This document shows positions 3,259 through 28,190 of a stretch of 64,000 nt of DNA, in pieces. Position 1 is the stretch's first letter. Each line of letters begins with the position of its first letter. Source of the DNA: a phage; NCBI GenBank assembly GCA_020619395.1, contig GCA_020619395.1_4860.1; one strand, given 5' to 3'. The notes beneath the pieces were generated by a model, which was not told the DNA's origin, made no database searches, and saw nothing but the letters and a program-made list of their open reading frames with translations. The position numbers were made by a program, and so were the translations under genes.

Positions 3259-3759
3259 TTACAGCCCCATATGCATAAGGGAAATGATTGGGACCTTACG
3301 GCCACGAATCATTGCATATGGTTCGTACATTTGTGCGTTAGTTTCGAATAACTCACAGGCCGGAATACGGTCACCGGTGGAAAGTTGTAAGACTTCGATT
3401 TGGTCGCCCCAGAAATTGTTTACTAATACGTGGTCGACGGTGTTGTCTTCACGACCTTCAGGGGTTTTGCAATAAGTGGCTGCGGCGTACCAACCTTTGC
3501 GGTATACTTCATAACCCGCATGAAGCATCCGATAGTACGGACGTAGCTGTGGGGCATTCAACGCAGCATCTAACCATTCGCTGTGGATGCTGTTAATCAA
3601 TACGGTTGCTTCTGCTGGCCAGTCGGTGCGATTGAGGGTTAACTCGCCTAACAACTTCAACTTCCAGCCAGTGGAAAGAATGGCACGGGTACGTTCGGGA
3701 TTGACGTTCATCTGAGTAAAGAAAGAAGAACGGGTATCGTCGAGAATGTTCATGTTCAT
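3259..3759 (-). CDS. hypothetical protein (~166 aa)
   Basis: ORF extends to 3825 but the ATG at 3759 (MNMNILDD..) has RBS aagga 8 nt upstream; upstream ORF part overlaps a hairpin. Confidence 0.5.
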   Translation of the reverse strand: MNMNILDDTRSSFFTQMNVNPERTRAILSTGWKLKLLGELTLNRTDWPAEATVLINSIHSEWLDAALNAPQLRPYYRMLHAGYEVYRKGWYAAATYCKTPEGREDNTVDHVLVNNFWGDQIEVLQLSTGDRIPACELFETNAQMYEPYAMIRGRKVPIISLMHMGL

Positions 3760-3788
3760 TTGCTTAATCCTTACGAGTAATAGTCGAT

Positions 3789-3834
3789 TAAAAAGGACCC
3801 TGCGGCTAAGTGTTGGGGAAATCACCGCAGGGCC
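3789..3834 (-). terminator. hairpin plus T-run, terminator-like
   Basis: ggaccctgcgg / ccgcagggcc arms with ~20 nt loop, T-run on minus strand (plus aaaaa 3789-3793). Confidence 0.4.
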
Positions 3835-3854
3835 AAAGTGAGATGGGTCGTCAT

Positions 3855-3876
3855 CTCACGTTATAACATCTGTCTG
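3855..3876. promoter_or_regulatory. conserved intergenic motif, copy E (CTCAC-gtt-ATAACATCTGTCTG)
   Basis: one of 5 near-identical intergenic copies; function unknown (candidate phage promoter or processing site). Confidence 0.4.
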
Positions 3877-3888
3877 AAAACTTTTCGG

Positions 3889-4272
3889 TTACTGGTCGAG
3901 CGCTACTGAACCACGCACCACCCCTTGCTGTTCAATAACCAGGAGGCGTTGTTTGGTTTTCGTATTGTAAGCGAGCGACGCGCGAAGCGTCGGGTCGCAC
4001 GTTATTGTCTCTACTGGCACAATCTCTTGTGCCTTTGAGTTCAACAGAAAGTAGTAACCTGCCGGACAAGTTTCCTCGCCCTTTGCGTGGACTAGGATGT
4101 ACTCGTCGTGCCGGCTGACTTCTTCACATCTACCATCGTCGCCAGTACAGACTTCGAACGAAGGCGGGTTGTACTGATACGGTGTACCTGGTAGTAAATC
4201 TTCTACGCTGGTTGTAGCTGAAGCAGAAGCGGTAAAGAACACCGCCACGATAATACCCATAAATCCACGCAT
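3889..4272 (-). CDS. exported protein with N-terminal signal peptide (127 aa)
   Basis: N-terminus MRGFMGIIVAVFFTASASA; several Cys in mature part. Confidence 0.6.
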   Translation of the reverse strand: MRGFMGIIVAVFFTASASATTSVEDLLPGTPYQYNPPSFEVCTGDDGRCEEVSRHDEYILVHAKGEETCPAGYYFLLNSKAQEIVPVETITCDPTLRASLAYNTKTKQRLLVIEQQGVVRGSVALDQ

Positions 4273-4285
4273 GTTGTTTCCTTAC

Positions 4286-4696
4286 TTAAAAGTCGAGTTT
4301 ATTGATGCCTACATTTTTCTTAATCGTAGGGTCATACATGATAACCGTCAGGGCATTATCGCCTGGGTCGCGAGTAAACTCGGCAACGGCTTCACCACTG
4401 CAGGCTTGGTTATCATTATAGTTCATGGATTCGGCTTGCCCGGTTGCCATGTTAATGACCCCGTATTCAGGGTCGCCACATGCGACACCGCCCATCGTTT
4501 TCACTAAGAGATAACGGTTGTTATCGGACATCGCAACGATCTGGCAGCTACCGCCTTGTACGTCAGAGTTCTGGCACCAGAACTCTCCGCCGTATTCGTG
4601 ATCGTTAACAACTTTTGGTAACTCGATACTTCCAGCGCGAGCGAAGAAGCTAATGGCCAGAGTAGCAAGTAAAACTGGTAATAAAAAATGTTTCAT
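4286..4696 (-). CDS. exported protein with signal peptide (136 aa)
   Basis: N-terminus MKHFLLPVLLATLAISFFARA. Confidence 0.6.
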   Translation of the reverse strand: MKHFLLPVLLATLAISFFARAGSIELPKVVNDHEYGGEFWCQNSDVQGGSCQIVAMSDNNRYLLVKTMGGVACGDPEYGVINMATGQAESMNYNDNQACSGEAVAEFTRDPGDNALTVIMYDPTIKKNVGINKLDF

Positions 4697-25852: not shown

Positions 25853-25899
25853 CAGATAGCGCTATGGGGCAAGGAAGCCCCAATCAAAGGAGTTTGGCA

Positions 25900-27102
25900 A
25901 TGGCCGAAATCATTTATCAGTACCCGCTTGACCTTACCGGGACATTAACGTCGAACGCCGTTACACGGCGTATTACGTTAGGTTCTGGTAAAGTTAACCG
26001 GGCTTTTGCTTTTCCTGACGGAGCTTTCTACGCGGATACCTTCCGCTTGGCAGCTGCGAATAAACCAGGTGTCTACCCGTACAAACGCGGCACAGACTAC
26101 GAACTGATTTTTGCACATACTGCATATCAGAAAATGACCAAGAACCGCGAAGTGGTCATGGGTGTGGTGGTAACTAACTCGGCCATTCCTACTGATATCG
26201 AAGTCTCTGCGCAAGTCGTTGGTGGTTTTCAGTCCGCGAACGTCGAAGGTATCCGACAAGCGATTGCGTCGCTGAAAATTGAAGACCGTGTGGTGGACTT
26301 CAAGGATCTTCGAAACGTACCTGATACGTTCCCATCCGCCCCGACGTATAAAGACCTTGGCGATATCTACGGTTTTGAGTATATCATTACCGTACTCGCT
26401 GGGATTAAAGATGCGATTAACTCCGGCTCTGCAGTACAGCTGGAAGAAATCAAAGGTATTCTGGACGGTCTGAAAAACGACTTCCTCGATGCCTTAAATG
26501 CCCACATCAACGCCGAAGGTAACGTACACAATCTCGACATTCATCAGGTTAATGGCCTGACGGAGACGGAGATTCGTGCTCTGATTCAAAGTGTACAGAC
26601 TGCCATTGACGCCACTATCAAAGATATCGGCGACTTAAGAGCAGCAGACACGGCGTTGGGGCAACGCATCGATGCAATTGTGGCTTCGTTAGCCGCGTGG
26701 AACGACCAGCTTAATGTAGTTGCTCAAAATTACCAGAAAATGTCGTTAGCATTAGCTAACCTTAATTCTCTGGTGTTGCAATTACAGAAGATGGTTAACG
26801 ATCTTCAGTCTGCACTGAATGAAACAAATCAGCGCGTCACGGATCTTGAGAATCAGGGCAAAGACTTCCAACAGCAAATTGATAACCTGCAAGGACAAAT
26901 CAACAGTCTTAAAACTCAGGTTATAAACAACACCAACGCAATTTCGCAGGCAAACCAGAATCTGGCGAACCATGCGGCTGCGGATAACCCACACCCGAAT
27001 TACCTCCATAAACAGTATGGCGGTGTTGTGCAGGCTGCTGTTCACGTCAACAACAGCCTCACCTCGCGCGACGATGTTCAAGCTGAAGCGGGTACTAAGT
27101 AA
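25900..27102 (+). CDS. tail fibre-like protein with coiled-coil segment (~400 aa)
   Basis: ATG at 25900 with RBS aaaggag; N-terminal domain shared with fibres 1-3; heptad-like Q/N-rich region; ADNPHPNY near C-terminus. Confidence 0.5.
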   Translation: MAEIIYQYPLDLTGTLTSNAVTRRITLGSGKVNRAFAFPDGAFYADTFRLAAANKPGVYPYKRGTDYELIFAHTAYQKMTKNREVVMGVVVTNSAIPTDIEVSAQVVGGFQSANVEGIRQAIASLKIEDRVVDFKDLRNVPDTFPSAPTYKDLGDIYGFEYIITVLAGIKDAINSGSAVQLEEIKGILDGLKNDFLDALNAHINAEGNVHNLDIHQVNGLTETEIRALIQSVQTAIDATIKDIGDLRAADTALGQRIDAIVASLAAWNDQLNVVAQNYQKMSLALANLNSLVLQLQKMVNDLQSALNETNQRVTDLENQGKDFQQQIDNLQGQINSLKTQVINNTNAISQANQNLANHAAADNPHPNYLHKQYGGVVQAAVHVNNSLTSRDDVQAEAGTK

Positions 27103-27111
27103 CTTGTTTAC

Positions 27112-27158
27112 GAGCCGGACTATGTTTATGGACATAGTCCGCTCGTTCTACTTTTTAA
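27112..27158 (+). terminator. hairpin plus T-run between fibre 4 and the peptide genes
   Basis: gagccggactatgt-ttatgg-acatagtccgctc then gttctactttttaa. Confidence 0.6.
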
Positions 27159-27167
27159 GGAAGCGTA

Positions 27168-27560
27168 ATGGCGATATCTATTAAAGACGTCAGAAACCGC
27201 GTCCAGATAGTCGAAGCTAACATGGCGACAGGCCCCCGCATCGAGGCGCAAGTGGCCTCTAAAGCCCATAATGCAGCAGACCGATTTGGGGGTTGGACGA
27301 AAGCACAGCTAGATTGCGGCGGGACATGTTCTTGGACGTGCTCTAACGGTTGCTCGCATGGCTGTTCGAGCTGTTCAGGAAGCTGTTCTGCTTCTTGTAT
27401 CGGTAGCTGTTCTTCGACGTGTGGCGGTAACTGTTCTGGTTGCTCTGGTTGTTCTGGTGGTTGCAGTAGTAGCTGTACCGGTAACTGTTCAGGTGGTTGC
27501 GGCGGCTCTTGTTCCGCAAACTGCTCCGGGGCCTGCTCCGGCGGCTGTTCAGGTCGCTAA
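27168..27560 (+). CDS. Cys-rich repeat peptide 1 (130 aa), candidate RiPP precursor
   Basis: RBS aaggaag; ~48 aa leader then ~80 aa core with Cys about every 4th residue (CSxx units, ~22 Cys). Confidence 0.7.
   Translation: MAISIKDVRNRVQIVEANMATGPRIEAQVASKAHNAADRFGGWTKAQLDCGGTCSWTCSNGCSHGCSSCSGSCSASCIGSCSSTCGGNCSGCSGCSGGCSSSCTGNCSGGCGGSCSANCSGACSGGCSGR
27312..27557. repeat. low-complexity tetrapeptide-codon repeat (C-x-x-x)n in peptide 1
   Basis: periodic tgc/tgt every ~12 nt; creates spurious ORFs in other frames. Confidence 0.8.
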
Positions 27561-27570
27561 GGGGGATTAA

Positions 27571-27972
27571 ATGGCAATTGGATTAAAAGAACTGAATAAC
27601 CGATTAAACGCGATCGATGCAAACGCTTTAAAGAACACCACGAATGTGCAAAACTACATTCGCAATAAAGCTACGAATAACGCCGACTTGTTCGCAGGTC
27701 AAGGCCGTTCGCACTATGACTGTGGTGGCACATGCTCTTTTAGTTGCTCGAGTTGTTCTGGCGGGTGTACTGGGTCTGCTACGGGCGGTTGTGGGTCGAC
27801 TTGTTCCGCAAACTGTGTATCGGGCTGTAGCAGTAGCTGTACGGGCTGTAGCTCTTCGTGCTCGGGTGGTTGTAGCGGAACGTGTACTGGTAACTGTTCT
27901 GGGGGTTGTGGTAAATCCTGCTCCGCAAACTGCTCCGGCGCGTGTTCTGGTGGTTGTTCAGGTCCTAACTGA
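27571..27972 (+). CDS. Cys-rich repeat peptide 2 (133 aa), candidate RiPP precursor
   Basis: RBS aagggggat; leader similar to peptide 1; C-terminal ~30 aa nearly identical to peptide 1. Confidence 0.7.
   Translation: MAIGLKELNNRLNAIDANALKNTTNVQNYIRNKATNNADLFAGQGRSHYDCGGTCSFSCSSCSGGCTGSATGGCGSTCSANCVSGCSSSCTGCSSSCSGGCSGTCTGNCSGGCGKSCSANCSGACSGGCSGPN
27718..27969. repeat. low-complexity (C-x-x-x)n codon repeat in peptide 2
   Basis: same periodic Cys codon pattern. Confidence 0.8.
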
Positions 27973-27983
27973 CGGAGGCTTAT

Positions 27984-28190
27984 GTGATCAGTCTCAAGAC
28001 TATTCGAAACCGTCTCGTTACGGTAGAAGGTTACATTACAACCGCACAGGCAAACAACTATATCGCTAACCAGGGCACCGTGTCGACCACAAATAACCTG
28101 GCTGGCTTACCGCTTTCTCACTATAACTGTAATGGTGGGTGTAGCTGGTCCTGCAGCGGAAGCTGTAGCCGTGGAGCGGGGAATCGATAA
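27984..28190 (+). CDS. short Cys-rich peptide 3 (68 aa), candidate RiPP precursor
   Basis: GTG start with RBS ggagg; leader MISLKTIRNRL.. matches peptides 1/2; short core CNGGCSWSCSGSCS. Confidence 0.55.
   Translation: MISLKTIRNRLVTVEGYITTAQANNYIANQGTVSTTNNLAGLPLSHYNCNGGCSWSCSGSCSRGAGNR

Follow-up and report, generated by a model that had tools for sequence, protein, structure and literature searches.

Three cysteine-repeat proteins between fibre-type and radical SAM genes of an SPN3US-like jumbo phage: a possible variant of the CXXX-repeat target system

The 64,000-nucleotide stretch of phage DNA analysed here (contig GCA_020619395.1_4860.1 of NCBI GenBank assembly GCA_020619395.1; called the window below) carries three small consecutive genes, P1, P2 and P3, in whose products cysteine recurs mostly at every fourth residue. 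We slightly favour an explanation in which P1–P3 are a tail-fibre-embedded, divergent form of the CXXX-repeat radical S-adenosylmethionine (SAM) target system, probably cross-linked by thioether bonds. Two results from sequence comparison carry this view: genes for such peptides and genes for radical SAM enzymes strictly co-occur, and P1–P3 are homologous to the C-termini of tail-fibre proteins.

Between 25.8 and 32.6 kb, the window is 98–99% identical to the Salmonella jumbo phage SPN3US, the SPFM phages, MET_P1_082_240 and others, and ~80% identical to STsAS, SPAsTU and the Erwinia phage pEa_SNUABM_29. By this measure it derives from an SPN3US-like jumbo (giant Salmonella) phage, and SPN3US gene numbers are used for its genes in the following. 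In this numbering, P1–P3 are flanked by gp167 and gp165. Coordinates of all features are collected in Table 1.

Three conserved cysteine-repeat proteins

P1 consists of an N-terminal part of 49 residues and a core of 81 residues, in which 17 of the 20 cysteine spacings measure four residues and the other three measure three residues. In P2, 16 of 19 spacings measure four residues, two measure three, and one of eight spans the slot occupied by alanine; the four cysteines of P3 are all spaced by four residues. A preliminary description of this DNA, made from the letters and their translations, had pointed out this periodicity in the peptides, and it was not matched by any of 200,000 composition-preserving shuffles of either the P1 or the P2 core. 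Cys, Ser and Gly make up ~80% of these two cores, and Ser follows Cys 16 of 21 times in P1. Translation of the open reading frames (ORFs) agrees with the same description in that P3 joins the shared N-terminal part to a core with four cysteines, and the claimed near-identity of the C-terminal tails of P1 and P2 amounts to 26 of 28 aligned residues. The N-terminal parts also have the motif described as shared. Its wording needs correction, since P2 reads LKELNNRL, and alignment of the three N-terminal parts hence gives (I/L)K(D/E/T)x(R/N)NR(V/L). The reported junction between N-terminal part and core exists as well, in the corrected form (Q/H)(L/Y)(D/N)C(G/N)G(T/G); its conserved pattern is NA..L.G...(H/Y)Y.C.G.CSW.C.

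The N-terminal helix carries hydrophobic residues at positions 5, 8, 12 and 15. An AlphaFold2 model of P1, computed from a nine-sequence alignment, reached a predicted local distance difference test (pLDDT) score of 42; the helix at residues 5–21 alone is usable, and the core is unstructured, with pLDDT below 50. Shine-Dalgarno-like sites stand 5–7 nucleotides (nt) upstream of the ORFs, namely AAGGAAG for P1, AGGGGGA for P2 and GGAGG for P3.

The gene order gp167, P1, P2, P3, gp165, radical SAM, radical SAM/SPASM, gp162, DUF4376 is kept in 11 phages (the window phage, SPN3US, STsAS, pEa_SNUABM_29, Stratton, Asesino, Machina, Phobos, CR5, Derbicus and Kwan) of five genera (Seoulvirus, Erskinevirus, Machinavirus, Derbicusvirus and Wellingtonvirus). 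All relatives examined have the trio; these are the genera just named and a metagenomic phage with a gp163 homologue of 47% identity. P1 has 21 cysteines in all 11 phages, its spacing string 44443444443344444444 is identical in four of four Seoulvirus genomes, and its first irregular (CxxC) site is kept in all genera. Seoulvirus is uniform throughout, both in the cysteine counts of the trio (21, 20 and 4) and in the spacing strings. Of the 21 slots of P2, one has turned into Ala in three genera, and the P2 of Kwan alone is longer, with 23 cysteines; P3 has 2–4 cysteines in the relatives.

Comparison with STsAS shows how this conservation is distributed. The P1 core differs by 46 synonymous codons and 1 amino-acid-changing codon, with 2, 1 and 46 differences at the three codon positions, and this excess at the third position settles the reading frame. 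The cores of P2 and P3 show 49 synonymous and 4 amino-acid-changing codons, and 6 and 0, respectively, while the N-terminal part of P1 shows 16 synonymous codons and 14 amino-acid changes. P1, P2 and P3 are real genes under strong selection. Judged from these substitutions, every residue of the core, and not Cys alone, is under stronger constraint than the N-terminal part. The preliminary description had called this part a leader; that it is shared stands, and the role of a leader appears doubtful, since it is less conserved than the core and aligns to a tail-fibre protein. Residue-by-residue conservation of an 81-residue Cys/Ser/Gly stretch is itself unusual for what looks like low-complexity sequence.

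Radical SAM enzymes and their cysteine-repeat partners

The peptides look like enzyme substrates, with two radical SAM genes, gp164 and gp163, 1–2 kb downstream; target and maturase genes lie within 2.5 kb in the window. The best NCBIfam matches of gp163 are TIGR04115, described as "radical SAM peptide maturase, CXXX-repeat target family" (125.6 bits, covering positions 8–227 of the 359 in the profile), and the ranthipeptide maturase PapB (113.6 bits, gp163 residues 22–357). The SCIFF maturase family TIGR03974 (cutoff 425) matches with 53.9 bits. These scores place gp163 as a distant sister of the TIGR04115 family. In an alignment of 14 homologues, C23, C27 and C30 are invariant, together with eight SPASM-type cysteines (C280, C288, C298, C342, C345, C351, C354 and C379). 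Since the radical SAM motif is reached already at residue 23, gp163 would have no N-terminal recognition domain. Its closest solved relative by sequence is CteB (5wgg). The smaller enzyme gp164 carries a CX3CX2C motif and three C-terminal cysteines, and C40, C44, C47, C257, C260 and C286 are invariant in its alignment.

We examined 95 loci, of which 91 were fetched via a gp163 relative (22–100% identity) and four are neighbourhoods of the window cluster in close relatives; a scan of IMG/VR supplied 80 of them. A CXXX-run ORF is present at 93 of the 95 loci, with lengths of 40–667 residues and up to 92 consecutive units. Homologues of gp163 with 30–47% identity are found in phage tail modules. 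The metagenomic phage L012 (loci are cited by L numbers and single proteins by P numbers of four digits) carries the same trio, as two long proteins and a short one, with a gp162 homologue after the SPASM enzyme. Homologues of gp164 accompany those of gp163 in L011, L012 and L022, and the C-terminal half of gp165 matches an ORF between target and enzymes in L022–L024. A single ORF of L024 (7137–9194) fuses a gp164-like radical SAM domain (residues 15–132) with a gp163-like SPASM enzyme (residues 289–663), which supports both enzymes acting on the same substrate. From the strict co-occurrence and the family assignment we infer that enzymes and peptides are related as enzyme and substrate.

Beyond the immediate relatives, a P1 profile gave 524 matches at an expectation value (E) of at most 0.001 among 1.84 billion representative proteins. 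The viral contig L025 encodes a bona fide TIGR04115 member (434 bits), and the enzyme of L027 scores 297 bits. A scan of bacterial genomes returned mostly generic radical SAM matches, with CXXX ORFs at about a dozen loci only. Cysteine numbers in this much wider family range from 10 to >100. Proteins P0177–P0182 (1,580–1,800 residues) end in huge CXXX arrays, with >100 Cys in P0177, and loci L096–L099 (Margulisiibacteriota/Termititenax) hold ORFs of 495–667 residues with 79–122 Cys; the repeat can thus reach extreme lengths outside the SPN3US clade. There are also bacterial or metagenomic CXXX proteins of 45–118 residues (P0125, P0127; L102, L106, L107, L161), some of which carry a twin-arginine-like or Sec-like signal peptide, such as P0125 with SRRQFFKQAAKGALP... 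Such signal peptides suggest that the superfamily includes secreted, non-phage forms.

Link to tail fibres

Several relatives carry the CXXX run as part of a fibre protein. In L020, L021, L024 and P0197, N-terminal domains match tail-fibre PHROGs (E 1e-20 to 1e-55) and a CXXX run forms the C-terminus, which in L024 and P0197 also matches phrog_6085, the family of P1–P3. Residues 227–364 of P0197 align to positions 3–144 of the P1 profile, which is nearly the whole profile and includes the N-terminal helix. The CXXX proteins have tail-protein genes as neighbours (protein J, a tail-fibre-repeat protein and DUF2612). A CXXX protein lies downstream of the gene for tip-attachment protein J in L011, L020 and L022, directly after it in L020. 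In the Deferribacter prophage L011, the protein J gene is followed by two ORFs and then by a protein of 302 residues ending in 28 CXXX units. Besides its 28-unit tail, this fibre protein (3490–4398) also contains three HxHDxRYYTE(S/T)E repeats, which resemble T4-type His-metal motifs. On a T4-like contig of 213 kb (L013, L014), a 568-residue protein encoded after gp13 carries the Pfam domain PF27846 (tSAM_targ_Cxxx_rpt), and in L027 the CXXX protein follows a tail-fibre-repeat protein.

DUF4376 domains, one of which is encoded by gp161, co-occur with tail-fibre assembly (Caudo_TAP) domains. P1–P3 lie in a tail or baseplate-fibre module, with gp167–gp170 on one side and the DUF4376 protein on the other. 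The products of SPN3US gp167–gp170 are non-head virion proteins (PMC5694885). Of these, gp168–gp170 are baseplate or tail-fibre candidates, and gp168 resembles gp131 of phiKZ at the baseplate periphery (PMC5694885; PMC5105663). Mass spectrometry detected SPN3US gp167 in virions, and it is not counted among the listed head proteins (PMC5694885 Suppl. Table 1). The proteins gp161–gp165 are not among the 86 of the SPN3US virion list, which fits maturation or assembly factors.

Comparison with known systems

To our knowledge, the CXXX-repeat radical SAM target system (TIGR04114, TIGR04115 and PF27846) is defined only bioinformatically; it is said to go back to Haft and Basu in 2011, and we know of no characterisation of the TIGR04114/TIGR04115 family since then. 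The window shares with it long C-x-x-x runs rich in Ser, Gly and Thr beside a SPASM radical SAM enzyme. TIGR04115 is the top family for gp163, and TIGR04114 ("Cys-rich repeat") is the sole family match of P1 and P2. Bona fide members, for example that of L025, stand on viral contigs with the same gene logic. However, at a TIGR04114 cutoff of 20, P1 scores 18.4 bits, P2 16.4 bits and P3 has no match, as compared to 20.7 for the fibre protein of L013. The enzyme gp163 is only 25–27% identical to TIGR04115-type enzymes and stays below the curated cutoff. Two further components, gp165 and another radical SAM enzyme, belong to the SPN3US type; its target is split into three small genes, and its junction reads CSW.C instead of CSGLC. 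On these comparisons, the SPN3US system would work like the CXXX-repeat system and is distantly related to it, but lies outside its curated bounds, as a variant rather than a member.

Ranthipeptides and sactipeptides are a second point of reference, given the matches of gp163 to PapB and CteB. Ranthipeptide substrates are likewise Cys-rich and repetitive (PapB/freyrasin, CteB/SCIFF), and freyrasin consists of six CxxxD units. The cores studied here differ in that they lack an Asp or Glu acceptor, so that the Cys-X3-Asp/Glu motif does not occur, and in that they comprise ~21 repeats rather than six. They stand in the context of phage tail fibres, with a probably structural product. A Pfam search of the ten proteins encoded nearby (20.6–32.5 kb) found no peptidase, transporter or cyclodehydratase domain, and thus no leader protease or exporter domain. 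A modification to thiazoles or oxazoles, as in heterocycloanthracin-like peptides, was rejected, as neither Pfam nor NCBIfam showed a YcaO cyclodehydratase/dehydrogenase among the same ten proteins.

Phage fibre tips such as the fibritin foldon, the Peptidase_S74 chaperone and the His-metal needle of T4 gp37 also sit at the C-terminal end of fibre proteins, and the flanks of P1–P3 are fibre and fibre-assembly-type genes. The CXXX module of the window differs in being detached, as three small proteins. We know of no fibre tip that consists of Cys repeats or for which radical SAM enzymes are required. A literature search found no paper on these peptides or on radical SAM modification of phage fibres; it covered a searchable library only and is not proof of novelty.

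A possible mechanism

This data may suggest a mechanism in which P1–P3 are three old paralogues of a baseplate or tail-fibre module, present as detached versions of the fibre tip. The amphipathic N-terminal helix could be a coiled-coil adaptor, or the enzymes could dock onto it, and the Gly/Ser-rich Cys tail would be disordered until modified. This tail would be the substrate of gp163 (SPASM) and gp164, with gp165 as an accessory protein. The enzyme gp163 would abstract a hydrogen atom, and a bond would then form between each Cys sulfur and a carbon atom in a residue close by. Thioether chemistry is most likely, given the analogy to PapB and CteB. A floppy tail would thereby turn into a rod of ~20 small thioether rings, possibly formed between chains. 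The product would be a structural or assembly element of the fibre, most likely no exported peptide, and we infer that P1–P3 are incorporated into the virion. More tentatively, it is possible that phages use the chemistry of peptides that are ribosomally synthesised and then modified post-translationally (RiPPs), in its radical SAM form, to build a stapled poly-thioether rod or clamp at the distal fibre end, and that in SPN3US-like phages the three small proteins co-assemble via their N-terminal helices.

Several observations weigh against this scheme. After the first Cys, the cores contain no Asp or Glu at all, which is the acceptor used by PapB. With scores of gp163 below the curated cutoffs (350 for TIGR04115, 340 for PapB), the reaction type is extrapolated from distant relatives. 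In this scheme gp164 would be a second modifying enzyme of putative role, and the predicted model of gp165 has no structural relatives. A terminator-like hairpin stands between gp167 and P1 (see below). Bacterial Cys-repeat peptides of 45–88 residues, resembling RiPP precursors, are found beside related enzymes. Published proteomics of SPN3US may be listed here as well; it used a database without P1–P3, so that non-detection is neutral. Diagnostic tryptic peptides of P1 would be VQIVEANMATGPR, IEAQVASK and FGGWTK, and those of P2 are LNAIDANALK, NTTNVQNYIR and ATNNADLFAGQGR.

Alternative explanations

The bacterial peptides just mentioned, which accompany enzymes of Lachnospiraceae and Clostridia, would fit best with P1–P3 as classical RiPPs. 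In that case, a leader of ~50 residues would be cut off, the cores would be cyclised, and Cys-rich peptides would be released at lysis with an antimicrobial, signalling or host-modifying effect. The layout is indeed precursor-like, as a conserved N-terminal motif and junction precede a repetitive core, in three paralogues beside SPASM-type maturases. However, the protease and exporter domains of such a pathway were not found among the ten neighbouring proteins, and the presumed leader evolves faster than the core, contrary to what is usual. Tail-fibre proteins end in the same module, with their stalk aligned to the presumed leader, and the position of P1–P3 between a fibre gene and the DUF4376 gene is invariant. 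Hence, we regard release as a classical RiPP as unlikely.

Binding of a metal appears less likely still. With ~25% Cys amid Gly and Ser, the cores are similar to metal-thiolate proteins, and the CXXX fibre protein of L011 bears HxHDxRYYTE motifs in addition. Free thiols could then bind a metal-sulfur cluster or one of the metals Zn, Fe and Cu, which might, for instance, stabilise the fibre in the manner of the T4 HxH motifs, while the radical SAM enzymes would act otherwise, on another substrate or by a reaction without cross-linking. But the presence of CXXX ORFs at nearly all loci that were fetched via a SPASM homologue, the fused enzyme included, points to an enzyme-substrate pair. Moreover, the near-absolute conservation of the non-Cys residues exceeds the needs of metal binding, and peptides are cross-linked through S-C or C-C bonds by each of the nearest characterised enzyme families.

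The preliminary description had viewed the cores as a repeat of 12 nt, recently duplicated and free to expand or contract by slippage, and such fast length variation is very improbable. The DNA has a weak periodicity only: its self-identity at lag 12 is 0.52 in P1 and 0.44 in P2, as compared to ~0.35 at other multiples of 3. Tandem Repeats Finder detected no period-12 array, but only stretches of period 24 (2.4 copies, 76%) and period 9 (2.7 copies), and the longest exact direct repeats within the cores measure 12 and 11 nt. All synonymous codons of Cys, Ser and Gly are used in the cores, thoroughly mixed. The tails of P1 and P2 are 79% identical in DNA, and half of their conserved codons differ synonymously; the window has 12 identical codons among 25, and Phobos has 3 among 23. 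Likeness of the tails despite different codons indicates that they were kept alike by long-term selection, and not by a recent duplication. The trio recurs in every relative, and the N-terminal parts of P1 and P2 have diverged to 16 common residues of 49. By these sequence criteria, P1, P2 and P3 represent old paralogy under very strong purifying selection. Slippage would find some room in the widely different repeat numbers of the distant superfamily and in the longer P2 of Kwan, but cysteine counts and spacing strings are identical across genera, and the repeat appears to change in length on long time scales only.

The sole recent event seems to be a small patch at 27488–27524, where the window differs from SPN3US at ten positions within 37 nt, against a background of 1.8%. 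Through these differences, P1 has taken on the P2 sequence and is now equal to P2 over TCCGCAAACTGCTCCGG (a patch of ~17–22 nt), with SSS changed to SAN. This has the look of micro gene conversion involving the paralogues P1 and P2, and it is the one point in this lineage that would agree with recent exchange. A second cluster of differences from SPN3US lies in the P2 tail at ~27864–27893.

An artefact, that is non-coding low-complexity sequence or a collapsed assembly with a Cys frame open by chance, can practically be discounted: the repeat is open in several frames and some GenBank records annotate another frame or the opposite strand, but the same sequence and length recur in >20 independent genomes, the ribosome-binding sites and the PHROG and NCBIfam matches attach to the Cys frame, and the codon-position evidence rules out the other frames.

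Neighbouring genes and annotation

Table 1. Features of the P1–P3 locus and corresponding stretches in related phages; positions refer to the window unless an L number is given.
Feature	Position	Strand	Description
gp167 homologue	25864..27102	+	Coiled-coil fibre-like virion structural protein, directly upstream of the peptides; phrog_2163 "virion structural protein", E 1e-108
RNA hairpin and U-rich run	27110..27146 (27110..27156 by a wider delimitation)	+	After the stop codon of gp167 and ahead of the ribosome-binding site of P1
P1	27168..27560	+	130 residues; N-terminal amphipathic helix, junction ...AQLDCGGTCSWTC, 81-residue CXXX-repeat core, 21 Cys; phrog_6085, E 7e-40
P2	27571..27972	+	133 residues, paralogue of P1; 20 Cys over 21 slots (one slot Ala); phrog_6085, E 2e-41
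P3	27984..28190	+	68 residues, GTG start; N-terminal helix and junction as in P1 and P2, four Cys only; phrog_6085, E 3e-25
gp165 homologue	28213..29100	+	295 residues, putative accessory protein of the system; no family beyond phrog_8030
gp164 homologue	29123..30037	+	Smaller radical SAM enzyme; PF04055, E 1e-15; ORF open from TTG 29087, likely start ATG 29123
gp163 homologue	30030..31358	+	Radical SAM/SPASM enzyme of peptide-maturase type; probable modifier of the CXXX cores
gp162 homologue	31273..31887	+	phrog_7988, E 7e-87; function unrecognised; not on the virion list
gp161 homologue	31863..32534	+	DUF4376 protein, last of the module; PF14301, E 1.4e-9; phrog_8169
SPN3US counterpart of 27168–28190	L001 4367-5396		
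Mis-annotated stretches in other records	L003 2944-3663; L007 3135-3956; L008 3377-3589; L010 3608-3985		

The gp167 homologue has weak matches to tail-fibre PHROGs, and its Pfam and NCBIfam matches are of the coiled-coil type only, at residues ~235–375. The hairpin that follows it comprises 15 base pairs with one bulge, has a minimum free energy of -24.1 kcal/mol (z-score -4.5; 0 of 200 shuffles were as stable) and is followed by GUUCUACUUUUU. It looks like an intrinsic terminator or attenuator and may set the ratio of fibre protein to peptides; a simple terminator scan did not flag it. No sigma-70-type promoter was found before the peptide genes, which is uninformative, since phiKZ-like phages use their own RNA polymerases. 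The true start of gp162 probably lies downstream of 31273, because the PHROG match begins at residue 17. A weak match of gp161 is to a "tail protein" PHROG.

In the annotation of SPN3US, P1 and P3 are uncalled, and "gp166" is a +1-frame ORF (MCKTTFAIK...) over P2. The records of pEa_SNUABM_29, Phobos, CR5 and Kwan carry opposite-strand ORFs across the repeats. In GenBank and in RefSeq, the start of SPN3US gp164 is placed at MDREDT..., so that the CNLDCSFC radical SAM cluster motif lies upstream of it; this motif is included in the ORF from the ATG of MTDQVESR... (window 29123; L001 6328-7242), with a start as in Machina. With P1 and P3 missing, P2 mis-framed and the motif of gp164 omitted, proteomic and comparative studies could not see the system. 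A word-based homologue search with P1 found 14 proteins only, and the exact P1 sequence was not found in a collection of 15 billion proteins. ORFs missed by gene callers may contribute to the small size of the family among called proteins.

Implications

If the explanation favoured here is true, many phages would have adopted a peptide-maturation chemistry known from bacterial natural products, so as to harden or register the fibres that recognise the host. The phages concerned would be jumbo myoviruses, T4-like phages, and lambda-like phages and prophages with tip-attachment protein J. Radical SAM peptide chemistry and phage structural biology would thereby be linked, and TIGR04114 and TIGR04115 would obtain a function. 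SPN3US is suited to tests, as amber-mutant genetics and published virion proteomics are at hand. Virion proteins would also be shown to undergo post-translational modification of a new kind, concealed so far by missed or mis-framed genes.

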